32,000 nucleotides of DNA from an uncultured Chitinophagaceae bacterium (GCA_964439265.1 CAYTOA010000004.1:49262-81261); one strand, 5' to 3'; counted from the stretch's first letter, positions 9,576-31,247 are shown. The notes: generated by a model from the sequence alone, not told the origin. Numbers and translations are program-made.

Positions 9576-10031
9576 ATGGGATTGACTCAGCGGATCAACG
9601 AGGACTTAAGAGCTGCGATGAAATCGGGCAACAAGCTCCGGCTCGAAACTCTGCGTATGCTTCGTGCGCAGATCATTGAATTTGAGAAGAAGGGACTGGA
9701 CAGGCCGATGAACGAGGACGATGAGATGTCGATCCTTATGTCCGCTACGAAAAAGCGGAAAGAGTCGATTGAACATTTCAAAAATGCGGGACGCATGGAG
9801 CTTGTAGAGCAGGAGACGAAAGAGATAGAAATAATTTCCGAATACCTGCCGAAACAACTGTCCCGGGAGGAGGCCGAACGCATCGTCGAAGGGCTTGTCC
9901 GCCAATCCGGCGCGGCCTCGATGAAAGACCTGGGGAAGGTCATGCCGATGGCGATGAAGGAGTTAAAGGGGAAAATCGACTCTAAAGTAATCTCTGAGAT
10001 CGTAAAACAAAAGCTTGAAGGTCCGTCATGA
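9576..10031 (+). CDS. GatB/YqeY domain-containing protein
   Basis: 151-aa ORF. RINEDLRAAMKSGNKLRLETLRMLRAQI...EIEIISEYLPKQLSREEAERIV...MKDLGKVMPMAMKELKGKIDSKVISEIVKQKL is the typical full-length YqeY pattern. Confidence 0.85.
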   Translation: MGLTQRINEDLRAAMKSGNKLRLETLRMLRAQIIEFEKKGLDRPMNEDDEMSILMSATKKRKESIEHFKNAGRMELVEQETKEIEIISEYLPKQLSREEAERIVEGLVRQSGAASMKDLGKVMPMAMKELKGKIDSKVISEIVKQKLEGPS

Positions 10032-10576
10032 CCACATTCGACACAATACTGGTTGTCATTCTTGTTCTCTTTATGCTTGCTGGATGGCGAAGCGGTTTTA
10101 TTAAAAAACTCATTGCACTGGTTTGCTTGGCAGCATCGCTTATTCTTGCGACAAAGTACGCGTCGTCGTTCGGTGAGATGGTTCTTGTACCGATGGGACT
10201 TACCGCCGGCGGAAGTACCACGTTTTCATTTATCATCATCGTCGGCGGAATCATGATCGCGCAGGCGATCATCTATAAGATCGCGATCAAGAAGCATGCT
10301 GACGGCACATGGAACAAGATAGGGGGAGTCATTGTCGGCTGTGTGGAAGGAGGTATTTTCCTCAGCTTGATGGTCATCTTCTTCAGCCTCTACCTTCATT
10401 TCCCTTCCGCAGAAACTCGTTCGGATTCACTCTTATACCGCCCGGTCAAGAATTTTGCCCCGCACATTTTCGACAGCGTCAACACATTATTGCCGGAGTC
10501 AGAAGACTTCTACCAGGAGATCATCAGCACTGTGAAGAAAGCGTCCAACCATCGAGAAGCGCCTTCGCACCAATGA
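10028..10576 (+). CDS. cvpA: CvpA-family membrane protein
   Basis: 182-aa ORF with four predicted TM helices. The N-terminus (FDTILVVILVLFMLAGWRSGFIKKLIALV) is typical of the CvpA/colicin V production family. Its start overlaps the yqeY stop (ATGA at 10028-10031). Confidence 0.75.
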   Translation: MTTFDTILVVILVLFMLAGWRSGFIKKLIALVCLAASLILATKYASSFGEMVLVPMGLTAGGSTTFSFIIIVGGIMIAQAIIYKIAIKKHADGTWNKIGGVIVGCVEGGIFLSLMVIFFSLYLHFPSAETRSDSLLYRPVKNFAPHIFDSVNTLLPESEDFYQEIISTVKKASNHREAPSHQ

Positions 10577-12948
10577 CCGAATATCAGTCAGCAGCCGAAA
10601 AGCTTGAATTCAAAAAGATACTCGGCCGATTGCAGGGCTACGCTTCATCCGATCTGGGTAAAGCCGCGGCGGAGCACGTAGTTCCATCCGGGAATCTCGC
10701 TCAACTGGCTCAGGAACTGAACCGCGTCGACGAGATGAAAAAGCTCCTGGAAAGCGACGATCCCTTTCCTATCGACGGAATGCGGGATATCCGGGAACCG
10801 CTCCAGAGAGCAGGAATCGAAAATAGCATCCTGGGCCCCTCCGACCTACTCCCGATCGCCCTTACACTTCAAGCAGCCAGAAACATCAAGGTGTTCGTTC
10901 AGAAAAGGAGAGATGTATATCTGGAGCTCTCTGCACTCTGCGATTCTGTGAACATCAATAAGATACTTGAGTACAACATCACTCAAGCTATTGATGAGAA
11001 CGGAAATATCAAAGATGCCGCAAGTAAAGAATTGAGATCGATTCGATCTGAACTAGTTTCGATGTACGAAATGCTGCGCAAACAGTTGGAACGCATTCTG
11101 AAGAATGTTTCCGATCAGGGTCTTGCGCAAGAAGAGATTATCACTACCAGGGACGGAAGGATGGTGATTCCGGTCAAAGCGGAACAGAAGCACAGCGTTC
11201 CCGGATTTATTCATAGTTCATCCTCTTCAGGATTCACTGTCTTTATCGAGCCGGCAGAAACACTCTCTCTTAACAATGAGATCCGGGAACTTCATTTCAA
11301 AGAAGTGCGCGAGATCGAGAAGATACTGCGTGCACTGACAATGCAGGTGAGAGAAGTCTCCTCCGATTTATTGCAGAGCCTTCAGATATTACAACATATA
11401 GATTTAATCTACGCTAAGGCGAAGTATTCCATTGAAATCAAAGGGAATAAACCCTTTCTAAAAGAATTTGGATCCCTCAAAATCGTCGATGCACGTCACC
11501 CGATTCTCCTTCTTCGACATCCGAGAGAGAAGATAGTCCCGTTATCGATTGAGTTGGGAAATGGCTACAGTACGTTGCTTATCACTGGACCAAACGCAGG
11601 CGGAAAAAGCGTCGCGATGAAGACAGTGGGAGTGCTGGTGTTGATGCTCCAGTGCGGAATCCACGTACCTGCGTCGCCAGATTCCGAATTCCCAGTTTTC
11701 CAAAAGCTGTTTGTCGACATTGGAGACGACCAGTCAATTGAGAATGACTTAAGCACGTTCAGCTCGCACATCACGATGCTTCGGGATATTCTGAGCTCCG
11801 CAGACGACCACAGCCTGATCCTCATAGACGAAATTGGTGCCGGAACAGACCCGGTTGAGGGAGGAGCCCTGGCAGCCGTGATCTTAGCAGAATTGACGAA
11901 AGCCGGAGCATTCACTATCGCCACGACGCACCAGGTTACACTAAAAGCGTTTGTGCATGAAACAAATGGCATGGAAAACGGCGCCATGGAATTCGATCAG
12001 ACAACCTTGACACCTACTTTTCATTTTAGATTCGGTGTACCGGGAAGCAGCTACGCACTCGAAATAGCGAGACGGCTGGGAGTTCCAACCTCGATCATCG
12101 CAGAAGCTGAACGAATGGCCGGTGAACAAAAGTCAAGGTTGGAAAAACTCATTGTCGATCTTGAAAGTCGGTCTCAATCGCTCTCGAAACAGCTATCGAT
12201 GGTTGAAGGAGAGAAACTCAAGTATAACGAGTTAGTCGAAGGTTATGAAATTAAACTAAAGGGATTGCGCGAAGAAATCAGACTCATAAAATCAAAAGCT
12301 ATTGAAGAAGCGAAAGAAATTATCAACAAGGCTAACTCCATTATTGAGAAGTCCATAAAAGAGATCAGGCTGCGTCAGGCAGAACGAAGTTCTATCGTGG
12401 AAAGTAAACAGGAGATTAAGTTGTTGGGAAATGAAATCCATGGGATGGAAATGGCATTGAATGAAATTGAACCCGGTGCTCCCAGCTTCGATATCGGAGA
12501 AACGATTCAGAAAGGGGCTACGGTCAAGCTGAAATCCAACTCACAAGTCGGCGAAGTCCTGCAGCCGCCGGACGCAAACGGAATTCTTCAAGTCGCATTC
12601 GACAGTCTGAAATTGCGCATTCATGTGAACGACGTTGTTCCAATCAAAAGGCCTAAGACCCAATCACAATCATTTGCACCTGTGCTGTTGGACGGCGGGC
12701 CAAAACACGAGATTGACGTGAGAGGTCTATATGGCGACGAAGCTTTAGAAGCCGTCGATAAGTTCTTAGACAATGCTGTCGTTACTGGATTGCATCAAGT
12801 GGATATCATTCATGGAAAAGGTACGGGTGCATTACGGAAAAAGATTACTACTTTTCTGAAATCTGATTCGCGGATCAAATCACATCACTTTGGCGAGTGG
12901 AACGAGGGAGGAATGGGAGTCACCATTGTCGACCTTAAAAACGAATGA
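10573..12948 (+). CDS. mutS2: Endonuclease MutS2 (MutS domain V ATPase + C-terminal Smr domain)
   Basis: 791 aa from ATG 10573, which overlaps the cvpA stop as ATGA. It has Walker A (ITGPNAGGKSVAMKTVG), DEIGAGTDPVEG, THQ and a long coiled coil. The C-terminal Smr domain reads EIDVRGLYGDEALEAVDKFLDNAVVTGLHQVDIIHGKGTGALRKKI. The 264-nt upstream extension of the track ORF (10309-10572) is an out-of-frame read through cvpA. Confidence 0.93.
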   Translation: MTEYQSAAEKLEFKKILGRLQGYASSDLGKAAAEHVVPSGNLAQLAQELNRVDEMKKLLESDDPFPIDGMRDIREPLQRAGIENSILGPSDLLPIALTLQAARNIKVFVQKRRDVYLELSALCDSVNINKILEYNITQAIDENGNIKDAASKELRSIRSELVSMYEMLRKQLERILKNVSDQGLAQEEIITTRDGRMVIPVKAEQKHSVPGFIHSSSSSGFTVFIEPAETLSLNNEIRELHFKEVREIEKILRALTMQVREVSSDLLQSLQILQHIDLIYAKAKYSIEIKGNKPFLKEFGSLKIVDARHPILLLRHPREKIVPLSIELGNGYSTLLITGPNAGGKSVAMKTVGVLVLMLQCGIHVPASPDSEFPVFQKLFVDIGDDQSIENDLSTFSSHITMLRDILSSADDHSLILIDEIGAGTDPVEGGALAAVILAELTKAGAFTIATTHQVTLKAFVHETNGMENGAMEFDQTTLTPTFHFRFGVPGSSYALEIARRLGVPTSIIAEAERMAGEQKSRLEKLIVDLESRSQSLSKQLSMVEGEKLKYNELVEGYEIKLKGLREEIRLIKSKAIEEAKEIINKANSIIEKSIKEIRLRQAERSSIVESKQEIKLLGNEIHGMEMALNEIEPGAPSFDIGETIQKGATVKLKSNSQVGEVLQPPDANGILQVAFDSLKLRIHVNDVVPIKRPKTQSQSFAPVLLDGGPKHEIDVRGLYGDEALEAVDKFLDNAVVTGLHQVDIIHGKGTGALRKKITTFLKSDSRIKSHHFGEWNEGGMGVTIVDLKNE

Positions 12949-19082: not shown

Positions 19083-19107
19083 ACCTGAAAAATAAACATG
19101 GCTATTG

Positions 19108-19472
19108 TGGAGGTGCGGGGATTCGAACCCCGGTCCGAAGTGATGACCATTAGACTTTCTCCATACTCAGTTCATCTCGTGTGCATTCGCCGCGGGGTGA
19201 TGGATGAACTCAACACTCCCAAAGCTATCTGGGATACAGATTCACTAATACCGCTCCAGCATTGATATTAGCACGCCCGACTGAAGTCGACACCTTGCAT
19301 GACACTAGTCAGGTAGAGCATCATGAAGATGCGTCGCTTAACTATTAATTAAGCAGCGAGTGCGTAGTTGTAGTCTGCACTTAAGTTGGTTCCGTTTTAT
19401 TATCGTGCAACTCGGAGAGCACGGTATGCTTATGTCTAACCATCTTCTACCCCGTCGAAACCATTCACCCCC
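19108..19472 (-). ncRNA. ssrA: Transfer-messenger RNA (tmRNA, SsrA)
   Basis: The minus-strand 5' end is GGGGGUGAAUGGUUUCGACGGGG, the conserved tmRNA 5' acceptor and UUCGACGGG box. The 3' end is GGACCGGGGUUCGAAUCCCCGCACCUCC-A, a T-arm plus acceptor strand complementary to the 5' GGGGGUG. An internal tag ORF reads ...GCA GAC UAC AAC UAC GCA CUC GCU GCU UAA, giving ...ADYNYALAA*, and is preceded by UAAUAA. The terminal CCA is not encoded (the genome reads CAA after the discriminator). Ends are +/- a few nt. Confidence 0.9.
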
Positions 19473-19482
19473 TTAATAGAAT

Positions 19483-20343
19483 CTAAACATTCCTATTCAG
19501 AATATCAATACATTGCAGCATCGACTGCATTTTCAACTGCTGACCTTTCTTTTCGAATACCAGTACCAAATTTCTCATCATTCTTTCGAGAATTTGCCTA
19601 TTGGAAACTGGCTCAAGATATTCATTCTTAAATGCATAGCCTAGTTTTTTCAGAGAATTCTTACAATCGTCCACGGAGAGAACTATTCCGCCATTGAAGG
19701 GATCGGCAAACAACGATCTCTGGCCGAAATCATACCGCAGAATGAAATGTCCGGGCATCCCAATACCCTGGACCGGGAAATTCAGCCTGCGCAACACGAG
19801 CATATAGATCACGGACAGAGTGATCGGTACTCCCTGTTTTGTTTCAATAACTTTGTTCAGAAAGTGATTATCCGTATCGTAGTAGTCGGATTCATTTCCC
19901 GTAAATCCCTTTTCAGCGGAGAAGTAACTGCCGATCTTTGCAGCAATCTCCTCACCTGGATCGGACGGGTCCAGGTGCGATTGAAATTCACTTGCAAAGA
20001 AATTCAATAAGTCGGAATAGATGTGCATATCAACGCTCGGATAGGCATGCTTTGCGATGAGGAATGCTCCCTCCTCCAGGTCAAGATCGCCCTTGTACTT
20101 TTCGCAATATGCGCGTAATTGCTCCTTGAAAGCGCCCAGAGAAATCGATTCATAAACTTCACGTATCCGCTGCTGCATCAGGGAATCGTCGGGTTGCAAG
20201 CAACTCTCCAGTACCGGCAATGCTTGCTCACCCGTCAGAAGAAGATGTTCTTTGGCTACTGAATAAATAGAATCGTCTTCATCGTCAAGGAGGTAAATCA
20301 ATGATTTTAAACGATTTATATCTATCTTATTAATCTGTTTCAT
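19483..20343 (-). CDS. SirB1/YchA-like protein (transglutaminase-like fold, C-terminal helical repeats)
   Basis: 286-aa ORF. The segment YYDTDNHFLNKVIETKQGVPITLSVIYMLVLRRLNFPVQGIGMPGHFILRY matches my recollection of the SirB1-family (COG2912) core (YY.p.Ns.L..Vl..r.G.PItL..l....a.rlgl...gv..PgHf.lr). The function of this family is unknown. Confidence 0.6.
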   Translation of the reverse strand: MKQINKIDINRLKSLIYLLDDEDDSIYSVAKEHLLLTGEQALPVLESCLQPDDSLMQQRIREVYESISLGAFKEQLRAYCEKYKGDLDLEEGAFLIAKHAYPSVDMHIYSDLLNFFASEFQSHLDPSDPGEEIAAKIGSYFSAEKGFTGNESDYYDTDNHFLNKVIETKQGVPITLSVIYMLVLRRLNFPVQGIGMPGHFILRYDFGQRSLFADPFNGGIVLSVDDCKNSLKKLGYAFKNEYLEPVSNRQILERMMRNLVLVFEKKGQQLKMQSMLQCIDILNRNV

Positions 20344-20350
20344 AACATAG

Positions 20351-21199
20351 TCAGATGGGTTTGCGTTGAGGATAGTTCTCCATGAGACCGTTCTTTAAGA
20401 GTTTGAATGCTTCGCCAGGAGTGTCGGCAAATTTGAACAAGTTAAAATCCTCCTCGGCAATCATTCCATAGTCCTTAAGTTGACTAAAATTCAAGATGTG
20501 CTCCCAAAATTTCGTACCATAAAGAATCACCGTCATCTTCTTTTTGATTTTCTTCGTCTGGAGCAGCGTCAGCAACTCCATAAGTTCGTCCAAGGTCCCA
20601 AAACCCCCGGGAAATGCCACCAGCGCCTTCCCAAGGTACATGAACCAGTATTTCCGCATGAAGAAATAATGGAACTCGAAGTTCAATTCCGGCGAGATGT
20701 ATTTATTCGGAAATTGCTCAAGCGGCAGACCAATGTTCAGTCCCACCGATCGGCCCCCCGCGAGTGAGGCTCCCTTATTCGCCGCCTCCATTATGCCGGG
20801 ACCTCCGCCGGTAGCCACAACAAAGCGATTCTTCTCCTTCAGCGATGCCGACCATCTTGTCATAAGGAATGCAAGCTCCGCAGCGTCCTTATAGTACGAA
20901 GACATTTCAACGGCGATCCTCGCTTTGCGGTATTCCTCCGATTGCCTGTAATCGTTCCTTTTCTTTTTTTTCAGCTTTGAGATGGTTCCGGACAGCTTCT
21001 TCCGCGCAACGGATGGAGATTGTATGCGGGCTGAGCCGAAAAAGACGATAATATCTTTGACCCCGAAATAATTGAAGCGACTCAATGGCTCCAAAAATTC
21101 CGAAAGAATTCTTATCGGACGAGCATCCTTACTGTTAAGGAAACGCGGGTTCTTGTATGCCCGTAAAGGCAAGCGTTGCTCGTACTTTCTTGCCGTCAA
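20351..21199 (-). CDS. LOG-family / TIGR00730 Rossmann-fold protein (nucleotide 5'-monophosphate nucleosidase-like)
   Basis: 282-aa ORF with GGGPGIMEAANKGA and PGGFGTLDELMELLTLLQT (the LOG PGGxGTxxE motif). It also has the N-terminal AYKNPRFLNSKDARPIRILSEFLEP extension seen in the longer LOG subtype. Confidence 0.85.
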   Translation of the reverse strand: MTARKYEQRLPLRAYKNPRFLNSKDARPIRILSEFLEPLSRFNYFGVKDIIVFFGSARIQSPSVARKKLSGTISKLKKKKRNDYRQSEEYRKARIAVEMSSYYKDAAELAFLMTRWSASLKEKNRFVVATGGGPGIMEAANKGASLAGGRSVGLNIGLPLEQFPNKYISPELNFEFHYFFMRKYWFMYLGKALVAFPGGFGTLDELMELLTLLQTKKIKKKMTVILYGTKFWEHILNFSQLKDYGMIAEEDFNLFKFADTPGEAFKLLKNGLMENYPQRKPI

Positions 21200-21700
21200 C
21201 TACTTCCCACTTAATGATTGATGGAATATCCTTGCTATCATTTCAGCAATTTTTTCTAAATACATCCCGTCTATCTCATCGAATGAATTTAGCTCGGCAC
21301 TGTCTACGTCCAATACGCCAAAACAATCCCCGCCATACTTCAACGGTACCACTATTTCCGACCTTGAGCCGGGGTCGCACGCAATATGTCCCGGAAAAGC
21401 ATCGACGTCCGGAACGATGATTGTCCTTCGCTCTTTTGCCGCCTTTCCGCATACGCCCTTTCCGACGGCGATACGAACGCAGGCGACCTTACCTTGAAAC
21501 GGACCAAGAATCAACTCACCTTCTTCGATGCGATAGAAGCCAACCCACGAATATTGCAGAAACGCAGATTTTAGTGCGGCGCTGACGTTCGCCATGTCTG
21601 CGACAAGGTCATCTTCACCGGCAACGAGGGCCGCAAGTTGAGGGAGCAATTCCTCGTACCGCTCCTTCTTGCCTTCAGCGAGTACCGCTATTGTTTCCAT
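21200..21700 (-). CDS. msrC: GAF-domain free methionine-(R)-sulfoxide reductase-like protein (YebR/MsrC family)
   Basis: 166-aa single-GAF protein with WVGFYRIEEGELILGPFQGKVACVRIAVGKGVCGKAA...VPDVDAFPGHIACDPGSRSEIVVPL, including the conserved Cys positions of the fRMsr family. Its stop codon directly abuts the LOG start codon. Confidence 0.8.
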   Translation of the reverse strand: METIAVLAEGKKERYEELLPQLAALVAGEDDLVADMANVSAALKSAFLQYSWVGFYRIEEGELILGPFQGKVACVRIAVGKGVCGKAAKERRTIIVPDVDAFPGHIACDPGSRSEIVVPLKYGGDCFGVLDVDSAELNSFDEIDGMYLEKIAEMIARIFHQSLSGK

Positions 21701-22730
21701 GCATATTATCTTCCTGATTAAAGACCCGGTCGATTATGATCGGAACCGCACTCTCGCCGCTGACATATTGAGCGTGAAGCCGTGCAAACTCTTTTCTGAC
21801 CACTCCGAGTCCCGCGAACGAGCCGTCATCATTGGCGTCATGAGCAACGTTTGTGATGATGCCGATGTCTTTTCCGTCGCATGCGATTGGTCCTCCTCCG
21901 GAATGAACAAGACGCCCGTCTCCACGGAAACTGCAGAGCGTTCGCTGAATCTTCTTGTAGGTGTCGAGCCGCGCTACAACTTCCTGTCCAATGTAGCAGC
22001 CTTTCGTGAAACTAATTTGGGTCCGAAAATTCAATTCAAGGGGGTTGCATTCAGCCATGATTTCCCGCGAGTACTGCGGAATTCCGCGCCGGATCTTAAA
22101 GAGTTCAAAAGCGTCATACCCAACCTGGGCGTCCATGTAAGGACTGAGATGATCCGGAAAACTCACGTCGGCATCCGATATAGAGAAGAGGGCATCCACG
22201 TCATAATAGTTCGAACGGAATACCCGGACACCGAGTTTCTCCAAAAAATCGTCTGGATGAATCACGGCAAAAATAATATGTCGTCCCGTTTCGTCGTTGA
22301 CTCTCAGGTCTTCTGCGATAATGAATTTCTCGATCCATTGCATTACGGATAACTGCGCGTTCGGGCTTGCGATCAGCAGGATGTGATCGCTCATGTGGAG
22401 CGCGACGACCGAATCGACCACTCTCCCCTTCTCCGTTGTCAATACAGTCTGCACCGAGTCGCCGGGCAGAAACTTTCTGAAATCATTGGATGAAATCCTG
22501 TTCAAAAAATCGGCGGCATCACTGCCGTCCAGGCGAAGGAGTCCGTGGCCGGAGAAATCGACAAGAGCGCTTCCCGTTTCAAGAAGGCGGACCTCGTCGC
22601 GGACGGAATGAAAGCGTATCGGCTGCAACCAGCCATCCCGTTGCCGCAACAGGACGTTTGACCGCTCATAGTATTCCTGCAGTGGAAGCCGGCAAATTTC
22701 TTTCGGCGGATATGTCGCGATCTCATCCAT
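21675..22730 (-). CDS. ygfZ: YgfZ-type folate-binding protein (GcvT/aminomethyltransferase fold)
   Basis: 351-aa ORF with a GcvT-like N-terminal region (LVDFSGHGLLRLDGSDAADFLNRISSND) and the YgfZ signature K-G-C-Y-x-G-Q-E (FTKGCYIGQEVVARL). Its 3' end overlaps the msrC-like start by 26 nt. Confidence 0.8.
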   Translation of the reverse strand: MDEIATYPPKEICRLPLQEYYERSNVLLRQRDGWLQPIRFHSVRDEVRLLETGSALVDFSGHGLLRLDGSDAADFLNRISSNDFRKFLPGDSVQTVLTTEKGRVVDSVVALHMSDHILLIASPNAQLSVMQWIEKFIIAEDLRVNDETGRHIIFAVIHPDDFLEKLGVRVFRSNYYDVDALFSISDADVSFPDHLSPYMDAQVGYDAFELFKIRRGIPQYSREIMAECNPLELNFRTQISFTKGCYIGQEVVARLDTYKKIQRTLCSFRGDGRLVHSGGGPIACDGKDIGIITNVAHDANDDGSFAGLGVVRKEFARLHAQYVSGESAVPIIIDRVFNQEDNMHGNNSGTR

Positions 22731-22771
22731 TGTTAATAGGTTTAACAGCCTTCAAGCTAAAATAATTTCCC

Positions 22772-22805
22772 AAAAAAAGAGGAGCACCCTCATCAAGTGC
22801 TCCTC
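22772..22805 (-). terminator. Rho-independent terminator closing the MotAB/FliG-like operon
   Basis: Read on the minus strand: GAGGAGCAC-uugaugagg-GUGCUCCUC, a perfect 9-bp GC-rich stem with a 9-nt loop, followed directly by UUUUUUU. It begins 24 nt after the stop of the 606-aa gene. Confidence 0.8.
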
Positions 22806-22828
22806 ACAAGTATCCGAAAATGCTTATT

Positions 22829-24649
22829 TCATTGAATCTGAGCCTCTTCCGGCTCTTCTCCCGTTTCAAGCGCAGAAGAAGTCTGGACGCCGCCTGCTTT
22901 GATGTATTGGCGCACCATTCTCGTTATACGTCTGCGAGCCTTCAGTTCATCGTCGGGCGAAACAGCTTTCATCGACGTCAGTCTGTCTTCCAGGATAATC
23001 CTCGATTTTGAGGGGAGCACCGAGAGGAACCGTTCTGAGATATCTGGAGGTGCATTCTTTAGCGCGATTGCGATCTCGTCGCCCGAAATATCTTTGACGA
23101 TCTGGCGAAGCATGCGCTCATCCAATTGGCTGATTGCGTTGAACGAAACCCGCTGGCTCGTGATCTCACGGTAGAGGTCAAGGTTCACGACCTTGATAAA
23201 CTCGATGATCGAAGATTCGGACGTTTCGTCGATGTTGTCGAAGATATCCAGCAACAGGTCTGTGCCCTGTACCTGGACGTTGTTGATCACCGGGATCGTC
23301 GAGGCCTTCGCGGCAAGCTGCTTGGCGACCGAAACATATGTGTCCGACGTGAGACGCCGCAGTTTTCCCAGCTCAAGCGCCACTTCGCCCTGCTGCATCG
23401 AAGGGAGGTTCTTCAGCATTGAGCTCGCTATCGGCGTCGTCAGTTGTGACAAGATAATTGCGATAATGCCGGGGGGTTCATCTTTCATCAACAAATAAAG
23501 CTGGGGCTCAGATAATCTTTCGAGGAAGGCGAAAGGATTTTGTTTCGAATTTCCCGCTTCCGAAAATCTTTTTACGGCAAGCTGATTCTGAAAATACGTC
23601 AGTGCTTCCCTCGTCTCTGCCGGAGTCCTCTCCTGTTTTTCCAGCGTGAGGGATTGGAGTGCTTTCATCTCTTCAATTGAAAAGTGGTCGCGCATCACCT
23701 GCAGGACATTGTTGCCGAGCTGCCCGATGATCACCGTGAGTCTTTCTTTTTGATTCGAGTCCGAAATCAAATCTCTGATCACATGCGACGTCAGATCGGA
23801 TTCGCCGGCGCACGTCACGATGAGATTCGAGCGCACTTTATCGACCTCTATGGCTTCCTGATATTCTGCGTTTGAATCTGCCATCGCCTGCTGCGCGGAA
23901 ACGACCTGAGCCTCTTCTCCCTGCACGGGCTGTTGAACCAGCATTTGAGGCTCCGCCCCTGATTCCTTCTTTCCTCTCGACAACAGCACAATAATAAGGA
24001 TCAGAATCAAAATGCCCAAAGCGATCAGCAGCATCGTTGTCGGATTCAGGAACGCATCCTGCGTCTTCGCCGGCGTGAGGTCGTTTCCCGGCTTCTGTGC
24101 GGCGCGCGCTTCGGCTTCCTGTCTTTCCTTCTCGAGTTCCTGGATTTGTTTTTCCTGTTCCGCCTTTTGCTGCTCTCGTTGTATCTGGAGCGTACTCGCC
24201 GGGAACGACATCTCCTGCAGATCCACCCGGTCGCCCCGGACTTTATTCAGCTTGCCGGTATAAAAAGCGATATTCGTCAAAAGGTCTCGTTCTTCGGGCG
24301 TCCGATTTTTATCGATCAGCATCTTTATGACGATCGACTCAATGCCTATCTGCGGCTTCTCCGTTTCGTCCGATGTCTGAGTCTGCGATTGGAAACCCGA
24401 TACTCCAGGGAGCAGAAAATCCCTGTTATCCCCTTTATCTTTTTTTGCCGGCGCACTCAAGTCTACAAGCGTCACGTCTGCAGTCACGAGGAAATTGAGG
24501 TCGGAAAAATAGCGGCGAATCTCCATCGAGATGCGGTCTTCCAGGTCACGCTCCATTTTTTTCTTCTCAAGCTCCAGGTCAACGGCAAAAAGCTTCGCCT
24601 GCAATACCACAACGAGCAGCACGATGATTCTTGTTAATCGAGTTTTCAT
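22829..24649 (-). CDS. Membrane-anchored FliG-like protein (N-terminal signal/anchor, FliF/YscJ-like periplasmic segment, coiled coil, TM helix, cytoplasmic FliG N/M/C-like region)
   Basis: 606-aa ORF. Residues 1-22 are a hydrophobic signal/anchor (RIIVLLVVVLQAKLFA). Residues ~30-150 form an alternating beta/alpha segment (DRISMEIRRYF..LNFLVTADVTLVDL...IESIVIKMLIDKNRTPEERDLLTNIAFYTGKLNKVRGDRVDLQEM) resembling a FliF/YscJ ring-building motif. Residues ~155-185 are a Q/E/K coiled coil, and ~203-224 a TM helix (TTMLLIALGILILILIIVLLS). Residues ~300-586 are collinear with FliG: FAFLERLSEPQLYLLMKDEPPGIIAIILSQLTTPIASSMLKNLP (EHPQ-box region) and FNAISQLDERMLRQIVKDISGDEIAIALKNAPPDISERFLSVLPSKSRIILEDRLTSMKAVSPDDELKARRRITRMVRQYIKAG (FliG_C including the charged helix). 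Confidence 0.7.
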   Translation of the reverse strand: MKTRLTRIIVLLVVVLQAKLFAVDLELEKKKMERDLEDRISMEIRRYFSDLNFLVTADVTLVDLSAPAKKDKGDNRDFLLPGVSGFQSQTQTSDETEKPQIGIESIVIKMLIDKNRTPEERDLLTNIAFYTGKLNKVRGDRVDLQEMSFPASTLQIQREQQKAEQEKQIQELEKERQEAEARAAQKPGNDLTPAKTQDAFLNPTTMLLIALGILILILIIVLLSRGKKESGAEPQMLVQQPVQGEEAQVVSAQQAMADSNAEYQEAIEVDKVRSNLIVTCAGESDLTSHVIRDLISDSNQKERLTVIIGQLGNNVLQVMRDHFSIEEMKALQSLTLEKQERTPAETREALTYFQNQLAVKRFSEAGNSKQNPFAFLERLSEPQLYLLMKDEPPGIIAIILSQLTTPIASSMLKNLPSMQQGEVALELGKLRRLTSDTYVSVAKQLAAKASTIPVINNVQVQGTDLLLDIFDNIDETSESSIIEFIKVVNLDLYREITSQRVSFNAISQLDERMLRQIVKDISGDEIAIALKNAPPDISERFLSVLPSKSRIILEDRLTSMKAVSPDDELKARRRITRMVRQYIKAGGVQTSSALETGEEPEEAQIQ

Positions 24650-24687
24650 GTTTGATCCGAAAATGTTTGAGATAACAATTTCAATCG

Positions 24688-25356
24688 CTAGACATCACTG
24701 TGGTAATAAATCCGTATAACGACGCGTCGATTATCGTTTCGCGCCTTTTCCGTGAATTGGCCGGTGAGAGGGTCTTTTTCCTTGTTTTGCGGACGGGCGT
24801 CGGCGAAGCCGGTGCTCGACAATCGTTTTCCTTCGATCGAAACCGTGTCCTGGAGGTAATGTACAACCTCGGTCGCACGGGCAGACGATAACTCCCAGTT
24901 AGAGCGAAAGTCCACCGTGCTCCGGAGAGGCGTATCGTCGGTGTGTCCTTCGACCGAAATGAAGGCATTTCGCGCTTTGACAAAATATCCCAGTATTTTG
25001 CCGATGCTGAAGATGGCGTCATATCCTTCCGGACGCAATGCGGCCTTTCCCGGCGGGAAGAGAAGATTGCTTCCGAAACGCAGTTCAATGCCCGCGTCTG
25101 TCATAACGACGTTCACCTGTCCCTTCAACGAAGAATTCTTTTCTATCGTTGTCAGCAACTCCTTCGAAAGGGTCCCAAGGTTCGCCTGCTGCTTCGCTGC
25201 TTCGGTCACCGAGGATGCAAGACTGTCCAGTTTTGACTGGTCGGGGATCGAAAGCGACAGCAACAACGTGAACGATGCAAGCATGGCAGTGAGCAAGTCT
25301 ATATAGCTGACCTGCCAGTGCTGCTCGTCCGTTCTTCGTTTCTCTCGTTTCCTCAT
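24688..25356 (-). CDS. motB: MotB-like stator subunit (single TM with conserved Asp + OmpA-like peptidoglycan-binding domain)
   Basis: 222-aa ORF. The N-terminus is basic, followed by WQVSYIDLLTAMLASFTLLL, the MotB TM/plug pattern (W-x-[IV]-x-Y-x-D-x-x-T) with the aspartate at the proton-binding position. The C-terminus reads VEGHTDDTPL...NWELSSARATEVVHYL...STGFADARP...NRRVVIRI, an OmpA/MotB domain. Confidence 0.85.
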   Translation of the reverse strand: MRKREKRRTDEQHWQVSYIDLLTAMLASFTLLLSLSIPDQSKLDSLASSVTEAAKQQANLGTLSKELLTTIEKNSSLKGQVNVVMTDAGIELRFGSNLLFPPGKAALRPEGYDAIFSIGKILGYFVKARNAFISVEGHTDDTPLRSTVDFRSNWELSSARATEVVHYLQDTVSIEGKRLSSTGFADARPQNKEKDPLTGQFTEKARNDNRRVVIRIYYHSDV

Positions 25357-25361
25357 GTCGG

Positions 25362-26210
25362 CTACCCTCCGCTCTCGGGTGAAAGCTGGGAAACAGCTGG
25401 AACAGAAAGCGCACGGCTCTGTGGAATGTATGACGAAAGTTTATCCTGTATAAACACGGGATGCCTCTTGTCTTTGATCAGGCACAACCCTTCGATGATC
25501 ATTCCCTTGAGTAGGGCTTCTTCGTCTGTCCGTTTCTCTATCTTGTCAGCGAACGGAGCGAAGATAAAGTTCGAAAGGAAGAGGCCATACAGCGTCGTCG
25601 TAAACGCCACCGCAAGCGCCTGGAGGATAGGCCCGAACCCAGCGGCGGCATCGATCTTGGTGGAGAACATCTGGATCAAGCCGACAGTCGTGCCCAACAT
25701 ACCGTACCCCGGCGAGTAGCGCGCCGCAGCCCTGAAAATATTAACGTCCGTCGATTCCCGCTGGGCTTCATTCTCGATACGCGATTCGAGGATGTCCTTA
25801 ATCTCTTCCCGCTTGTAACCGTTGACCAGCATGAGAACCCCGTCGCGAAGGAACGGGTACTTGATTTGATTCGCGTAGTCCTCCAGGGATTCGATATCGT
25901 GCGTGTTGGAATATTGTGCGATGTCTTTTATCGTTTCCAGATACGTCGCGAAATTGATCTTATTCCTGATGTAGACAAAATACAGGGAGCGCACCGAACC
26001 GAACAATTCCCTGAAATTATAGCTGATGAGCATCGAAGAGCTGACGCCGAGAAATACAAAAATAATACCGGGTATGTGTACATAGTGAATAAGCGAATCC
26101 GGGACATACCCTTTTTGCAGCGCATCGACGGTTTCAGATTGAGCGCCGATGATCAGCAGAACATACGCCGCGATCCCAAAGAGAACATACCCGATAAAAG
26201 TTGAATTCAT
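25362..26210 (-). CDS. motA: MotA/PomA-like stator subunit (MotA/TolQ/ExbB proton-channel family)
   Basis: 282-aa ORF with 4 predicted TM helices and a ~100-aa cytoplasmic loop between TM2 and TM3 (YPFLRDGVLMLVNGYKREEIKDILESRIENEAQRE). SPGYGMLGTTVGLIQMF and TTTLYGLFLSNFIFAPFADKI are the MotA TM3 and TM4 signatures, each retaining its conserved Pro. The size and 4-TM topology fit MotA rather than TolQ/ExbB. Confidence 0.85.
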   Translation of the reverse strand: MNSTFIGYVLFGIAAYVLLIIGAQSETVDALQKGYVPDSLIHYVHIPGIIFVFLGVSSSMLISYNFRELFGSVRSLYFVYIRNKINFATYLETIKDIAQYSNTHDIESLEDYANQIKYPFLRDGVLMLVNGYKREEIKDILESRIENEAQRESTDVNIFRAAARYSPGYGMLGTTVGLIQMFSTKIDAAAGFGPILQALAVAFTTTLYGLFLSNFIFAPFADKIEKRTDEEALLKGMIIEGLCLIKDKRHPVFIQDKLSSYIPQSRALSVPAVSQLSPESGG

Positions 26211-26228
26211 ACTGAGCCTTTCGGTTAA

Positions 26229-26954
26229 TTACATTCGATAAAGTATCGCCCGCACATTGTCCATCGACGGATCAAGTTCGAGAGCTTTTTCCCAGCTAAG
26301 TTTTGCATCTGGGAACTGACGTAACATGTAATAGATCGACCCTCGAACTGCATATGCAAGAGCCATGTTGGGCGCAGCATCCACCGACTTGTTGATTTCG
26401 GCAAGCGCCTGAGTGTAACGCCGCTCAGAAAAAAGGCTTTGCGCTGTCTGAAGACTATTCAATGCCCTATTATAGTCGGCGTCATCCTTTGTATATGTCC
26501 CTTGTCCCGGCTGCTTCTTCCGCACTTTGGACGTGTCGACAATATCCTTGATGTCCGAGGCCAAGTCCTCTTCCTTCGGTTTCAACAGCTCATCGGTCTC
26601 ATCGCGGTCATGTTTCTTTTGACTTGCAGTTCGCTTCGGCTGCTCTTCCTCTTCATTAGCGCCTTGCGCATTCTTCTTCAATGCCTGCCCGGAATAATCA
26701 ATAGTGAAATCAATGTCTTTGTTGTAGAGGTCAAGCAGTACATCCATGTTCAGCGTTGGGGTAGTCAATTTCACGGAGGCGGGCGCAGACGGCGTTCCAC
26801 TCTCCTTCGACGGCGCCGATTCCTTCTGATACGCCGATTGAGCTTTCAGTTGACTTTTCGACGCCGAGTCTCCCTGCACCGTCAGGTTCTCCTGACCGAA
26901 TGTCAAAGATAAAATTCCAAAGCTAAACAGCGCTGCGATTAACACTCTTTTCAT
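26229..26954 (-). CDS. Secreted TPR-repeat protein with a long acidic/lysine-rich disordered linker
   Basis: 241-aa ORF. It has an N-terminal signal peptide (MKRVLIAALFSFGILSLTFG|QE; no lipobox Cys) and a low-complexity S/K/E/D region of ~130 aa. The C-terminal ~80 aa carry TPR-like repeats (YNRALNSLQTAQSLFSERRYTQALAEINKSVDAAPNMALAYAVRGSIYYMLRQFPDAKLSWEKALELDP). Confidence 0.6.
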   Translation of the reverse strand: MKRVLIAALFSFGILSLTFGQENLTVQGDSASKSQLKAQSAYQKESAPSKESGTPSAPASVKLTTPTLNMDVLLDLYNKDIDFTIDYSGQALKKNAQGANEEEEQPKRTASQKKHDRDETDELLKPKEEDLASDIKDIVDTSKVRKKQPGQGTYTKDDADYNRALNSLQTAQSLFSERRYTQALAEINKSVDAAPNMALAYAVRGSIYYMLRQFPDAKLSWEKALELDPSMDNVRAILYRM

Positions 26955-26978
26955 AGACAGTCCTTATTTTCGTGTTCG

Positions 26979-28109
26979 TTACAGAACGAAATTCACTTGC
27001 AGACCGTAGAGCGGTCCCGCAATGTCGGAGCGGTCAAAACTCTTGCTGATGGCAATACCGTTGTAGAAACCGGTCAACCCAACATTTCTGCTCAATCGCA
27101 GTGACAACCCGGCATAGTACGACTCTGGAAGTCCGCTGTTCTTGAAGGAGACATCGAACCCGCCGGCAAGGTCGAGCATGAGGATTCCGGGACCTACCTG
27201 ATCATTTCCTATGATTTCAAATGAAAGTCCGGGCATGACAATGATCCCCATCAATCCGAACTTCGATGTTCCAATCAACCGTGAATCAATATAGAACTTC
27301 AAAAAATTCATGATCGTCGCCATCTCGTTCAGGCGGTAACCAATGGAATAATATCCAACCGAATTGCCGGAATCTTTGACCCCAAAAGTGTAGGAATTGC
27401 CGAGGTTGAAACCAACGGTGAGATAATTCTCGATGAGACCTGTCTTCCTTTTGAGTGCATATTCTGCTGCAAGCTCAGACCCGGGATCGGTCGGCAGAAT
27501 GCGATACTCCGCCTTCAGTTCTTTGCTCCATACCGTGATCCCATTGAGGTCGTTTATGTTCAGAAACATAATAATTTGGTTCGACGAAACCAAAACATCG
27601 GTGGAAACAATACCGTCGACATTGTGCGCCTTCGCATACGTGCGTATCTCATCTTCCGTGTATGTGTTCTTCACCTGAAGAGTGCTGTCCGTGGCTTTGA
27701 ACGACAGTGTCTTAAGATCCTGTGCGCCCACGGCAGCAAATCTCCGGTCTTTCGTCAACGCGTTCTTCAATTTCCCCTCGAAATAACTCGATAGAAACTG
27801 AATCTCCGAATATGTCAACTCTTCCTTGAAGGGCCAACGGACTTTCGTCTTGTACAACAACAATGTCCTGATGCTTGGACTGACTTCTTTTAACATCGGC
27901 GTCATCGCTGACAGAGCAGTATCCAAAGCAATGTCGAATTTTGGAAAGATTGAAATGAGTTTCGAGTTTTCCGTCGACGGGATTTTTGCTACAGAGGGTT
28001 GAGGCTCTTGGCTTTGTGATTGTTGTTGGGCTTTGGCTGCGAAGGAGAGCAAAACAGTTGAAAAAACGATAAAAGCAATTACAGGAAGATGATTTTGCCG
28101 AGATTGCAT
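26979..28109 (-). CDS. Signal-peptide envelope protein: periplasmic alpha/beta N-domain plus putative outer-membrane beta-barrel C-terminal half
   Basis: 376-aa ORF with a signal peptide (VIAFIVFSTVLLSFAAKA|QQ). Residues ~90-200 show a pattern (LKNALTKDRRFAAVG...AKAHNVDGIVSTDVLVSSNQIIMFLNINDLNGITVWS) reminiscent of LpoB/CsgG/TolB-N/FlgO-type periplasmic domains. Residues ~215-376 have alternating hydrophobic/polar strands with G/Y/F-rich turns (YLTVGFNLGNSYTFGV, VGYYSIGYRL, GLSFEIIG, MLDLAGGFDVSF, YYAGLSLRLS, LYGLQVNFVL), suggestive of a small beta-barrel. No family is recognised. Confidence 0.45.
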   Translation of the reverse strand: MQSRQNHLPVIAFIVFSTVLLSFAAKAQQQSQSQEPQPSVAKIPSTENSKLISIFPKFDIALDTALSAMTPMLKEVSPSIRTLLLYKTKVRWPFKEELTYSEIQFLSSYFEGKLKNALTKDRRFAAVGAQDLKTLSFKATDSTLQVKNTYTEDEIRTYAKAHNVDGIVSTDVLVSSNQIIMFLNINDLNGITVWSKELKAEYRILPTDPGSELAAEYALKRKTGLIENYLTVGFNLGNSYTFGVKDSGNSVGYYSIGYRLNEMATIMNFLKFYIDSRLIGTSKFGLMGIIVMPGLSFEIIGNDQVGPGILMLDLAGGFDVSFKNSGLPESYYAGLSLRLSRNVGLTGFYNGIAISKSFDRSDIAGPLYGLQVNFVL

Positions 28110-28249
28110 GGTGTTTGTCTGCTCATTGTGATTGGAAGGGAATTTTGATTACTACCCACAGCGCGATCCCAAAAACCAGCATTACATTATAGAAGTAATT
28201 ATCGCAATCAATTTAAATACTTCTTGCAAACTATCGTCTAATTGGCCTT

Positions 28250-28277
28250 AATATAACAGAAAATTTAGATTTGTCAA
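28250..28277 (-). promoter_or_regulatory. Candidate sigma70-type promoter with extended -10 for the five-gene operon
   Basis: The minus strand reads TTGACA-aatctaaattttcTGtTATATT: a perfect -35, a 16-nt spacer, a TGn extension and a -10 with 5/6 match. It lies ~140 nt upstream of the ATG at 28109. It is unknown whether the host's primary sigma factor uses this consensus. Confidence 0.35.
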
Positions 28278-28586: not shown

Positions 28587-31247
28587 TTATTGGTTTTCAT
28601 CCTTTTTTGGAAAAATATCAGGATACAGCCTTGTGGCGCAATCCGGGCAGAGACTGTGCGAAAGCTTGGCCTCAGAATGCGTTGAGAGATATGCTTCCAG
28701 AAGGTTCCAGTAACCCGAATCATCCCTAATTTTTTTGCAGCTAGCGCAGATCGGAATCAATCCGCCCAGGACCTTGATTTTTGCCAGTGAATCTTCGACC
28801 CGTTCTTTGAGAATTTTTTCTCGTTGAAGAAGCTGCCACACTCTGGCGCGATAGATTCCAAACATGAACCCGAACAAGATGACAGAGATCAACACGTAGA
28901 ACCAGCGAGCCTGGTAGAAGTGAGGAGCAAGAGTAAAATCAAAGGAAGCGCCTTCAAGATTCCATACGCCGTCGTTATTGCACGCGATGACTCTAAAATT
29001 GTATTGGCCGGGGGGAATATTCGTATACAACGCCGTACGCCGGGAACTCGTTTCCTTCCAGACGTCGTCGTAACCAACAAGCTTATATTTGAACTGCACT
29101 TTTTCCGAAGCGGTGTAGCTCAGGCCGGCATACTGGAATTCTACTTCCCCCTTCCCGGCCGGCGCTGATGCGTGCAGCGTTGGAACATACGATTTCCTGT
29201 CAATCATGGCCTCTTCAATAACCACTGGAGGAGGGATCGAGTTCGTCATCAATGCGCCGGGGTCAATCACAACAATGCCTTTCGTGGTTGGGAAGATAAG
29301 TCTCCCGTCGGCAGTTTTTGATCCAGCAGGCTGGGCATTGCCGTTGCACTCGCTCGTTATCATGCCGTCCGAAATGCCGAATGACATACAGCGGACAGAG
29401 GATTTTTTGCCGTCCGCAAACTCGTTTAGATCTTCTATGCTGGCCCGGTAGATACCTTTGTTGCAGCTCATCCAGAGATTACGGTCGTCGTCCTCCAGAA
29501 TTTGAAATACCGCATCATTAAACAATCCCGATTTGCTGGAGATGTGCGAGAACGATTGGTTCTTATATCGGTAGAGTCCTCCTCCATACGTTCCAATCCA
29601 CATGGTGCCGTCCTTGTCTTCATGGAAAGCGTAGACGGGCTCGGTCGGACATCCTTCTGAAACATTAAATGCTGTAACTTCATTTTTCTTCCAGCGGATC
29701 ATCCCTCCGTTGTGACCTATCCAGATGCTCCCGCTACTATCGCGATAGAGCGTTCGAATCATAGTATTCGACAGGTTCAGATTCCCCACCGACGTAATAG
29801 TTCCATTTTTGAATTCACTCAGAGTACCATGAGCTGTCCCGATCCACATCGATCCGTCGGGAAGCGGAAGAAGCGCTCTCACATCGTCATAAGCCGGTCC
29901 ATTCTTTCCCGTGAAGGTTTTGAATTTGCCATCCTTGAAACGCACAACGCCAGAACTCGTAGCAAGCCATACTGCATCGTCTTTATCCTGAACAATCGCG
30001 CGAATCAAATTGGCGGGTAAGCCGTTTTTTGTATTGAACACATCGAACCTATTTGACAGAACGTGGATCGCCCCCCAGCCAATAGTGCCGATCCATACGC
30101 TTCCTTCCCGCGATTGGTATATCGCATCCGAGTTCTCCTCGTCACTCCCGTTTTGACCGGCCATGTGTGCAAAATTTCCCTCCCAAAGACGATTGATCCC
30201 GTCGCTGGAGGTCCCAACCCACACATTGCCCTCGCGGTCATTCATGACGGAAAAAACGAAATTGCTTGAAAGTCCGTCTTTTGTTCCGACTGCTGTAAAC
30301 TTTCCGCCTGAAAGTCGATTTATTCCGCCGAACTCCGTCCCAATCCACAAATCACCTTTTGGATCTTGCGCAATACATTGAACAGAGTTGTCGGACAGAC
30401 CTTCGGCTTTCCCATAGATTTTGAGAGTGCCGCCGCGAAACTTCACCAAGCCTTTTGGTGTCCCGACCCAGATCGAACTATCACGACCAACACAGAGGGC
30501 TGTTATATCCTCGCTCGGAAGACCTTGAGGCTTCTTCAAAAAAGCAGATCGGTCGTTCATCATGCGATTGACCCCGGCATTCGTCCCTATCCATATGGTT
30601 CCTTCAAAGTCTTCAGCGAAGGAGGAGACAGAATTGCTGGAAAGACCTTCAGTGACAGTATAATGTCGAAATTTGCCATCCACGATACTGTAGATTCCAT
30701 TATCCGCAGTCCCTATCCATGCCCCGCCGCGTCGATCTTTGAATAAGGTTTGGATCCGAGTCTTCGCTAAAATCTGAGCGCCTGCAGAAAATTGACCGTC
30801 CTTCAGCTGCGTCATTCCTTCGAACGTACCGATGAGAAGGGAACCGTCATCAAGTTCAATGAGAGAGGTTACGTTGTTGTGCGGAATGGCGGGCGTGTTT
30901 TCCCTGTCAAACACAGTGAACCGTGCGCCGTCATATCGAACCAGGCCCTCTTCAGTTCCGAACCAGATAAAGCCATCTCTCGTTTGGATAATTGATCGAA
31001 CGGTACCCTGCGGCAAACCATCTGCAATAGACCACGAGCGAACAGAAAAACGAGTAAGAAATTTTTGTGGAATTCCCTTTTGTCTTGCACTGCCAGCCGA
31101 ATCCAGGCCACGCGGAAATGCTCGCATGCAGACAACAAGAATGAACGGCAGAATGCAGGCGCCCGCTCGGGCTGCCATTCGGAATGCAGATGCCGCAAAC
31201 TGTGAACTCACTGGGAATTTCTCCTTGAAGGAAATCAGGACGGGCAC
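28587..31247 (-). CDS. Transmembrane sensor: periplasmic two-component-regulator beta-propeller repeats + Y_Y_Y domain, TM helix, cytoplasmic coiled coil and C-terminal four-Cys motif
   Basis: 886-aa ORF with an N-terminal hydrophobic anchor (ACILPFILVVCMRAF). It has more than 12 repeats of the D-x-x-G-x-[IL]-W-[IV]-G-T pattern (RDGFIWFGT, RRGGAWIGT, FEGTIWIGT, DSSIWVGT, KGDLWIGT, EGNVWVGT, EGSVWIGT, DGSMWIGT, SGSIWIGH, DGTMWIGT, DRNLWMS). The Y_Y_Y/Ig-like domain reads VEFQYAGLSYTASEKVQFKYKLVGYDDVWKE...PPGQYNFRVIACNNDGVWN, and the TM helix WFYVLISVILFGFMFGIY. The tail ends in GGLIPICASCKKIRDDSGYWNLLEAYLSTHSEAKLSHSLCPDCATRLY. There is no HisKA/HATPase, GGDEF or HTH domain. The start could alternatively be the in-frame ATG at 31178. 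Confidence 0.85.
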   Translation of the reverse strand: MPVLISFKEKFPVSSQFAASAFRMAARAGACILPFILVVCMRAFPRGLDSAGSARQKGIPQKFLTRFSVRSWSIADGLPQGTVRSIIQTRDGFIWFGTEEGLVRYDGARFTVFDRENTPAIPHNNVTSLIELDDGSLLIGTFEGMTQLKDGQFSAGAQILAKTRIQTLFKDRRGGAWIGTADNGIYSIVDGKFRHYTVTEGLSSNSVSSFAEDFEGTIWIGTNAGVNRMMNDRSAFLKKPQGLPSEDITALCVGRDSSIWVGTPKGLVKFRGGTLKIYGKAEGLSDNSVQCIAQDPKGDLWIGTEFGGINRLSGGKFTAVGTKDGLSSNFVFSVMNDREGNVWVGTSSDGINRLWEGNFAHMAGQNGSDEENSDAIYQSREGSVWIGTIGWGAIHVLSNRFDVFNTKNGLPANLIRAIVQDKDDAVWLATSSGVVRFKDGKFKTFTGKNGPAYDDVRALLPLPDGSMWIGTAHGTLSEFKNGTITSVGNLNLSNTMIRTLYRDSSGSIWIGHNGGMIRWKKNEVTAFNVSEGCPTEPVYAFHEDKDGTMWIGTYGGGLYRYKNQSFSHISSKSGLFNDAVFQILEDDDRNLWMSCNKGIYRASIEDLNEFADGKKSSVRCMSFGISDGMITSECNGNAQPAGSKTADGRLIFPTTKGIVVIDPGALMTNSIPPPVVIEEAMIDRKSYVPTLHASAPAGKGEVEFQYAGLSYTASEKVQFKYKLVGYDDVWKETSSRRTALYTNIPPGQYNFRVIACNNDGVWNLEGASFDFTLAPHFYQARWFYVLISVILFGFMFGIYRARVWQLLQREKILKERVEDSLAKIKVLGGLIPICASCKKIRDDSGYWNLLEAYLSTHSEAKLSHSLCPDCATRLYPDIFPKKDENQ

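Follow-up and report, generated by a model that had tools for sequence, protein, structure and literature searches.

A stand-alone operon pairing a flagellar-type MotA/MotB stator with a natural FliF-FliG fusion: a candidate for a non-flagellar, ion-driven machine

The 32,000-nt stretch of DNA analyzed here (the window; all coordinates are counted from its first letter) comes from an uncultured Chitinophagaceae bacterium (GCA_964439265.1, CAYTOA010000004.1:49262-81261) and carries, on its minus strand, an operon of five co-oriented open reading frames (ORFs), 28109->22829, which we designate A, B, C, D and E. We conclude, with moderate confidence, that the products of this operon form a self-contained machine of rotor and stator, ion-driven and non-flagellar, that is made up of core parts of the flagellar motor. 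The first gene of the operon, A (26979..28109, minus strand like the others), specifies a secreted protein of 376 amino acids (aa) with a periplasmic domain and a predicted outer-membrane barrel; B (26229..26954) specifies a secreted tetratricopeptide-repeat (TPR) protein of 241 aa. C (25362..26210; 282 aa) and D (24688..25356; 222 aa) are the A and B subunits of a MotA/MotB-type stator. E (22829..24649; 606 aa) is a putative rotor subunit, in which ring-building motif (RBM) 3 of FliF, a transmembrane (TM) helix and FliG are fused. To our knowledge, FliG and MotAB cooperate only inside flagella, and the other 5:2 motors drive different partners. An earlier note, made from the sequence alone, had read A as a protein with a signal peptide and a barrel-like C-terminal half, B as a secreted TPR protein, C and D as MotA-like and MotB-like, and E as a FliF/FliG chimera that should give significant FliG matches. 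Each of these assignments holds under the comparisons described below.

Protein E reads from end to end like a shortened FliF followed by a FliG. Behind a signal peptide or first TM helix lies a periplasmic RBM3-like domain (aa ~24-150; 24200..24580, minus strand). This is followed by a TM helix equivalent to TM2 of FliF (aa ~203-226; 23972..24043, minus), by a cytoplasmic helical region made up of a FliF-like C-terminal tail and a FliG_N-like domain (aa ~259-365; 23555..23875, minus), and by the middle and C-terminal (torque) domains of FliG (aa 371-589; 22883..23539, minus). The TM helix comprises the hydrophobic run MLLIALGILILILIIVLL, then SRGKK, and is predicted to be helical. For the FliG half, Pfam recognizes FliG_M and FliG_C (E-values 6.1e-14 and 1.4e-19). 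Residues 371-589 align without gaps to the two corresponding domains of Thermotoga maritima FliG (1lkv, 1.6e-22), and Foldseek aligns 305-334 columns of E with structures of full-length FliG (3hjl, 5.5e-10; 8wiw; 8umx). FliG_N (PF14842) is found in 31 of 39 distant members of the E family, with a best E-value of 2.6e-10. In the torque helix, K531, K548 and D555 are the equivalents of E. coli FliG K264, R281 and D288, respectively; within the clade both lysines are invariant, and the position of D555 is always acidic.

To the FliF half, several comparisons apply. In an AlphaFold2 (AF2) model of E, created from an alignment of 25 sequences (predicted local distance difference test, pLDDT, 67.5; predicted TM-score, pTM, 0.27), the periplasmic domain adopts the order alpha-beta-[37-aa insertion]-beta-alpha-beta, i.e., the fold of a ring-building motif, and the insertion carries an invariant LPG motif. 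Foldseek matches this model to about 20 entries of the FliF membrane/supramembrane ring (MS-ring) over the RBM3/S-ring region (such as 8z5v, 6sd1, 8z4g and 7cg7), with probability 1.0 and a target-normalized TM-score (TMt) of 0.38-0.59. A 31-sequence profile of the N-domain, run against the 177,635 distinct sequences of the PDB with an E-value limit of 10, returned five matches, all of them FliF; the best, 9yh6 (0.0015), spans the whole domain. The two families share the motif with which the domain ends, RGD-x-v-x-v-(x)4-FP (aligned as RGD-x-v-x-v-(x)4-F), which maps to residues 405-439 of Salmonella FliF. Lastly, PF08345 (YscJ_FliF_C) matches 17 of the 31 N-domains in the family, at best with 6.8e-6. 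Profile and structural comparisons show, for the predicted protein, that E is a natural FliF-FliG fusion, whose single chain runs from a domain like RBM3 of FliF through a TM helix to an entire FliG.

Independent confirmation that E combines a FliF-like protein with FliG is provided by loci in which the two are encoded separately. In this split form (loci L031-L033), genes for a lipoprotein, three TPR proteins, MotA, MotB, a mini-FliF and FliG stand among housekeeping neighbors. The mini-FliF, of 382-630 aa, contains PF08345 alone and ends with a segment, ...SVGNPETATNILNNW, that matches the FliF-tail region of E; the FliG is soluble and has 309-310 aa. Hidden Markov models (HMMs) of the window's families recognize the separate parts, namely C (5e-61), D (4e-50), FliG (6e-44), the mini-FliF (6e-13) and a TPR protein (1e-20), and hhalign pairs the N-domain of E with the L031 mini-FliF at a probability of 95% and an E-value of 2.4e-8. 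Pairwise BLAST of E against this mini-FliF gave no meaningful match; that is, profile methods were required. The fused and the split cassettes might together represent a free-standing FliF(RBM3)/FliG-MotAB engine that was never tied to type III export, i.e., a surviving relative of the pre-flagellar rotor/stator module that gave rise to the flagellar motor, and not a cut-down flagellum; we regard this idea as speculative and rather improbable.

C matches the Pfam family MotA_ExbB (9.8e-22). Its best NCBIfam models are MotP, PomA and MotA (8.6e-44 to 1e-25; PomA 3e-39), and among PDB sequences it matches only flagellar MotA/PomA chains, the best being 9lu9 (2.7e-27). The acidic pair E110/D111 aligns with E96/E97 of PomA and is invariant in the clade (LE[DE][YF]). 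The position of R88/K89 is not basic in C, and in most members a His, Arg or Lys is found one to two residues later. In D, Pfam detects MotB_plug (2.7e-9) and an OmpA-like peptidoglycan-binding domain (4.8e-15). The TM helix of D, SYIDLLTAML, contains the channel aspartate, Asp20; it aligns to Bacillus subtilis MotB (6ysl), including this aspartate, which is kept in all variants of the module. The hallmark of 5:2 motors, i.e., a MotA_ExbB channel subunit with a single-TM partner that has an Asp in the membrane, is present. As predicted proteins, C and D are demonstrably a stator of the flagellar MotA/MotB type, with plug, channel Asp and peptidoglycan-binding domain. From their homology to solved MotAB and PomAB complexes we infer that they would assemble as A5B2 and rotate. 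The NCBIfam cut-offs for flagellar equivalogs are missed by a wide margin throughout, also by C and D (for fliG, 91 versus 227 bits), and these two are thus relatives of flagellar stators rather than orthologs of any named one.

The ancestry of C also bears on a different reading, in which the operon would be a Zorya-like or other MotAB-based anti-phage defense. Zorya does use a MotAB-like 5:2 motor, and D matches ZorB models with 1.6e-23; C, however, scores 12.9 bits against ZorA and 150 bits against MotP, and at 282 aa it lacks the long ZorA tail. Neither ZorC nor ZorD is encoded, A, B and E have no PADLOC match, and the setting is a conserved chromosomal housekeeping context, not a defense island. 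A defense function is next to impossible, and the candidate was ruled out with PADLOC. A Tol, Ton or ExbBD system was likewise rejected: the E-value of C is 0.041 with TolQ as against 8.6e-44 with MotP, and no ExbD, TonB_C or TolA domain was found.

Could these be genes of a real flagellum, either a dispersed locus or an additional stator/rotor set equipped with a periplasmic scaffold, as in PflA/PflB, the collar or the H/T rings? The module resembles the core of the flagellar motor in its stator, in the N, M and C domains of FliG, in the key charges of the torque helix, in its homology to RBM3 and in its FliF-then-FliG topology; flagellar proteins are the nearest relatives of C, D and the FliG portion of E. 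Some lineages of the Fibrobacterota-Chlorobiota-Bacteroidota (FCB) group, e.g., cultured Ignavibacteria, are flagellated. In complex motors, moreover, TPR and outer-membrane-linked proteins are known to scaffold the stators (PMC12054838, PMC7990780). We nevertheless consider a flagellar assignment quite unlikely, on account of what E and its surroundings lack. E unites FliF and FliG in one polypeptide, and its periplasmic part, of ~130 aa, is a single RBM3-like unit without RBM1, RBM2 and most of the beta-collar, for which there is only a short insertion. RBM1 and RBM2 of FliF surround the type III export gate, and the beta-collar grips the rod. Lacking both of these motifs, E cannot replace FliF or form an ordinary MS-ring, which argues for a non-flagellar device. 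The FliM-binding EHPQ(R) motif is not conserved either, and reads DEPPG in E.

The genomic surroundings point the same way. Among the components that make up a flagellum, the MotA/MotB-type stator and a FliG with M and C domains and a charged torque helix are present; a full-length FliF is absent, FliM and FliN were found neither in the window nor at any locus, and export or axial genes are absent from the flanks of ~10 kb. No flagellar gene (fli, flg or flh) lies within ~10 kb in any of ~30 loci, which represent three gene arrangements and have housekeeping flanks. Export, rod, hook, filament and chemotaxis genes are missing from the module and its vicinity; a TPR protein always accompanies it, and an outer-membrane barrel protein usually does. 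The shortfall against the fliG cut-off given above also counts against a flagellar assignment.

These two envelope partners are A and B. A matches no Pfam or NCBIfam family. It has a signal peptide, a periplasmic alpha/beta domain (aa ~55-201) and an 8-stranded barrel (aa 226-375), and ends in ...QVNFVL. In its AF2 model (pLDDT 72; barrel ~90), Foldseek likens the periplasmic domain to LpoB (4q6l, TMt 0.63), that is, to an LpoB-C/TolB-N-like fold, and the barrel, which is confidently modeled, to OmpA (1bxw), NspA, Ail and OmpX. A is, according to this model, an 8-stranded outer-membrane barrel protein with an LpoB/TolB-N-like periplasmic domain. Its 45 homologs all fall in the same clade. B matches TPR_2 (1e-8) and TPR_1 (3e-7), with a low-complexity linker preceding C-terminal TPRs at aa ~160-237. 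Where the module is permuted or split, the family HMM recognizes the orthologs of B with 1e-12 to 1e-24. A lipobox (...LMGC..., ...ILSC...) is seen in B of the Fibrobacterota-like branch (L025, 12911-13627; L027, 10863-11498). In the window's clade B has an ordinary signal peptide without Cys, and its membrane attachment therefore differs between branches.

TPR periplasmic and outer-membrane proteins also accompany MotB-type stators in PflA/PflB, the spirochaete collar and the Vibrio H/T rings, and the TolB-N/LpoB-like fold of A is of the same class as the fold that has been reported in ring proteins of the FlgT type. By sequence, no homology to PflA, PflB, FlgT, FlgP or MotX/MotY was detected. 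Unlike these periplasmic stator scaffolds, the module has no flagellar basal body to scaffold. In having an ion-driven motor with periplasmic and outer-membrane partners, apparently to energize the envelope, it resembles ExbBD-TonB, TolQR-TolA-Pal, GldLM/PorLM of the type IX secretion system (T9SS), AglRQS-Glt and ZorAB. None of these drives FliG or FliF, however, and C and D group with flagellar stators, not with ExbB, TolQ, GldL or ZorA.

The latter systems suggest a ringless alternative, in which MotAB acts on single E molecules or small oligomers that serve as a force-transducing arm to A and B, in the manner of TonB, TolA or GldM. We judge this possible but not likely. All other non-flagellar 5:2 motors are described as working in this way (review, PMC9389320). 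Also in its favor are the long coiled-coil or low-complexity periplasmic segment of E (aa 153-200), the TolB-N/LpoB-like domain of A, the Pal/OmpA-like domain of D and, in one subclade, the position of the module directly downstream of ftsQ-ftsA-ftsZ. Flagellar MotA, however, engages FliG in the cytoplasm and not via a periplasmic arm. RBM3 is a ring-building motif, and FliG_M and FliG_C normally polymerize head to tail. In addition, Pfam finds no TonB_C or TolA-like domain in E.

The module is not confined to the window. Close homologs of E number 57, all from metagenome-assembled genomes (MAGs) labeled Bacteroidota or Ignavibacteria. When GTDB species were scanned with one genome each and gene order was mapped by tblastn, 20 carriers emerged. 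All carriers of the module are MAGs, and over the whole family their taxonomy goes no further than the NCBI labels 'Bacteroidota bacterium', 'Ignavibacteriae' and 'Fibrobacteres'. In the 20 genomes, each locus whose length lets the order be read has A-B-C-D-E, E being 89% to 41% identical, and the block is also found on ENA metagenome contigs; the expectation that the five genes would be syntenic elsewhere was therefore borne out. Because they are syntenic in every related locus examined, a chance grouping is excluded. An exhaustive HMMER search with the E profile against 1.84 billion representatives yielded 3091 matches, 110 of them below 1e-30. The long, membrane-anchored form predominates, in that 128 of the 147 top representatives have at least 540 aa. 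The E family is spread over more than 100 clusters at 50% identity and at least two phylum-level labels.

What surrounds the genes varies by subclade: ygfZ-GAF-LOG-transglutaminase in one, cox and secG in another, ftsQAZ with Bat-like genes, or MerR with PAS kinases. Since the flanks differ between subclades, the cassette behaves as a unit. A permuted order, E-A-B-C-D, is found in L025-L028; in two of these loci, on contigs of 3.49 and 3.45 Mb, rpoB-rpoC immediately precedes the module. The named relatives in this branch are a 'FliG-like protein [Fibrobacteres bacterium]' and 'Fibrobacterales bacterium'. Orthology to the window's genes is confirmed by the family HMMs, for B with 1e-12 to 1e-16 and more weakly for A, with 1e-4 and a C-terminal ...F beta-signal. 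Two further loci, L029 (1-4253) and L030 (1-6683), encode distant E-like proteins of 638 and 724 aa beside larger TPR proteins (396, 332 and 945 aa), with no MotAB before the contig ends; further architectural variants probably exist.

Several observations concern the neighbors themselves. In the window, a block of ygfZ-like, (GAF), LOG/Lysine_decarbox and Transglut_core2 genes lies directly downstream of the module (19483-22730, minus). The same block follows at L001, L005-L009, L012, L014 and L015, even where E identity is 45-50%, and is not found in other subclades; the linkage might simply have been inherited, or it might reflect a shared function. At L025, too, a large protein with TPRs and a transglutaminase core follows the module. 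At L003/L004 (1480-16060) the cassette immediately follows murC-ftsQ-ftsA-ftsZ and precedes DUF4159/DUF4175 (Bat-like) genes. This placement, seen in one subclade, might point to a connection with cell division or with the envelope. MotA/TolQ/ExbB, TPR and OmpA proteins have been listed in the cellulose-adhesion proteome of Fibrobacter succinogenes; these belong to ExbB/ExbD/TonB clusters, FliG is not mentioned, and we therefore set them aside as a different system (PMC6851124, PMC4619616).

The five genes are under strong purifying selection. Relative to the nearest relative, nonsynonymous divergence (dN) is 0.03-0.14 for the module genes, with synonymous sites saturated; this is below the adjacent ygfZ-like gene (0.37), and lies at or below the level of the LOG-family gene (0.16). 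No locus shows damage to any of the five ORFs. These values bear on the view that the operon is a functionless relic of a lost flagellum. Rotor proteins without filament proteins have been reported in 11% of non-motile species, and flagellar remnants were discussed in that context (PMC12199754). A relic would nonetheless have to account for ORFs that are intact everywhere and for low dN at saturated synonymous divergence (dS), for the retention of the channel Asp, the plug, the RGD motif and the torque-helix charges, and for an order and content kept across the labels and clusters counted above. We hold it to be very improbable; conservation and dN/dS effectively rule it out.

The machine that we propose follows from what its parts do elsewhere. 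RBM3 of FliF forms an S-ring of 33 or 34 subunits, FliG forms a head-to-tail ring, and MotA pushes on the C-terminal domain of FliG. E would, in the same way, assemble into a ring in the membrane, with an S-ring-like face in the periplasm and the FliG torque helices ringed in the cytoplasm. A MotA5B2 complex of C and D, anchored to peptidoglycan, would push on FliG_C and turn this ring by proton or sodium flux. Because there is no switch complex, i.e., no FliM/FliN, the ring would probably turn in a single direction, and with RBM1, RBM2 and most of the beta-collar missing from E it could hold neither an export gate nor a rod. With lower confidence, we suggest that the ring contacts B and A in the periplasm through its invariant LPG insertion. 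The two proteins might form a scaffold that positions the stators, like the PflA/PflB TPR proteins and outer-membrane-linked rings; alternatively, they might be the output link, relaying energy from the inner to the outer membrane, as in Tol, Ton, Gld and Agl-Glt. Candidates for the output are movement on or adhesion to surfaces and the maintenance of the outer membrane.

A precedent for the fusion as such is provided by an engineered Vibrio FliF-FliG protein, which forms MS-rings in E. coli (PMC10941966; PDB 8z4d/8z4g). In both cases a covalent bond connects FliF with FliG, and the Vibrio result indicates that such a fusion is compatible with ring assembly. The Vibrio protein, however, is a laboratory construct of ~100 kDa with full-length FliF within a complete flagellar system, whereas E is natural, has ~67 kDa and retains RBM3 only.

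Several findings weigh against a rotary machine of this kind. The AF2 model of E is of only moderate confidence, at the pLDDT and pTM values given above, and the window's own E scores 12-16 bits (at most 16.2) against PF08345, below the Pfam gathering score of 23.8. Of the five charges that are classical for FliG, E retains no more than three; the equivalent of D289 is R, H or K, and that of R297 varies. The Fibrobacterota-like branch keeps only the positive charge equivalent to R281, and not the equivalents of K264 and D288. C has no clear equivalent of R90. A was not detected in the split variant by its family HMM, and the link to the outer membrane may thus not be universal. Ring formation and rotation of E are themselves proposed by homology. 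The suggestion in the earlier note of a minimal ion-driven device with a non-flagellar output is accordingly supported in outline, with rotation and output as the parts that we still infer.

The operon is tightly organized. The intergenic gaps A/B, B/C, C/D and D/E measure 24, 18, 5 and 38 nt, exactly as the earlier note had claimed. About 140 nt upstream of A is a putative sigma-70-like promoter, TTGACA-16-TGtTATATT (28277..28250, minus). This site, which had also been proposed, matches 11 of 12 consensus positions, has the TG extension and is the top score in the 7 kb scanned; the call is a consensus match alone, and the sigma-70 consensus may not be that of this lineage. In classical Bacteroidota the promoter consensus differs from the sigma-70 type. 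A near-perfect -35/extended -10 site in a genome labeled Bacteroidota could mean an Ignavibacteria-like lineage with promoters of the sigma-70 type, or a fortuitous match. A strong intrinsic terminator (22805..22779, minus; annotated over 22769..22805) lies 3' of E. Its stem has 11 pairs (6 of them G-C) with a 5-nt loop and is followed by T7; the earlier note had given 9 bp and U7.

Likewise, the claims that the operon is flanked by ygfZ and a propeller sensor and that the 32 kb contain no flagellar or chemotaxis genes agree with the annotation. All other ORFs of at least 150 aa in the window are housekeeping or sensor genes, and no fli, flg, flh or che gene is among them. They comprise truB, ribF, pnp, aroA, an ABC ATPase, bshC, an SDR gene, yqeY, cvpA, mutS2, accC, a biotin carrier, purL, a DAG-kinase-like gene, dapF, and the transglutaminase-like, LOG-family, GAF, ygfZ-like and Y_Y_Y propeller-sensor genes, the last two beside the operon. 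The propeller sensor (28587-31247, minus; 886 aa) has Reg_prop/Y_Y_Y domains and a TM helix, lacks HisKA and HATPase domains, and has at its end, as a putative output module, the Cys-rich motif CASCKKIRDDSGYW...HSLCPDC. A tmRNA gene (19105-19472, minus; Rfam RF00023, 153 bits), for which ARAGORN predicts the tag ADYNYALAA, lies between dapF and the transglutaminase-like gene. The mechanically called mutS2 ORF (10309-12948, plus) starts inside the cvpA ORF (10028-10576, plus), and its true start is probably downstream.

A full-text literature search found no published description of this module. The nearest statement is a 2025 survey of rotor proteins in filament-less genomes, in which an alternative function was speculated upon (PMC12199754). 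As far as we have found, then, the module is real, widespread and apparently undescribed, and it offers a concrete explanation for the rotor proteins reported in such genomes. If our reading is true, it would be the first candidate case of a rotor of the flagellar type put to a use other than a flagellum. No smaller natural rotor would then be known: a single protein would do the work of both FliF and FliG, and FliM, FliN and an export gate would be dispensed with. If the pre-flagellar reading were true, it would represent a new class of rotary machine driving a process of the outer envelope. Because the module occurs in genomes labeled Fibrobacterota and in those of Bacteroidota lineages, it may bear on surface adhesion or movement in organisms for which no motility apparatus is known.

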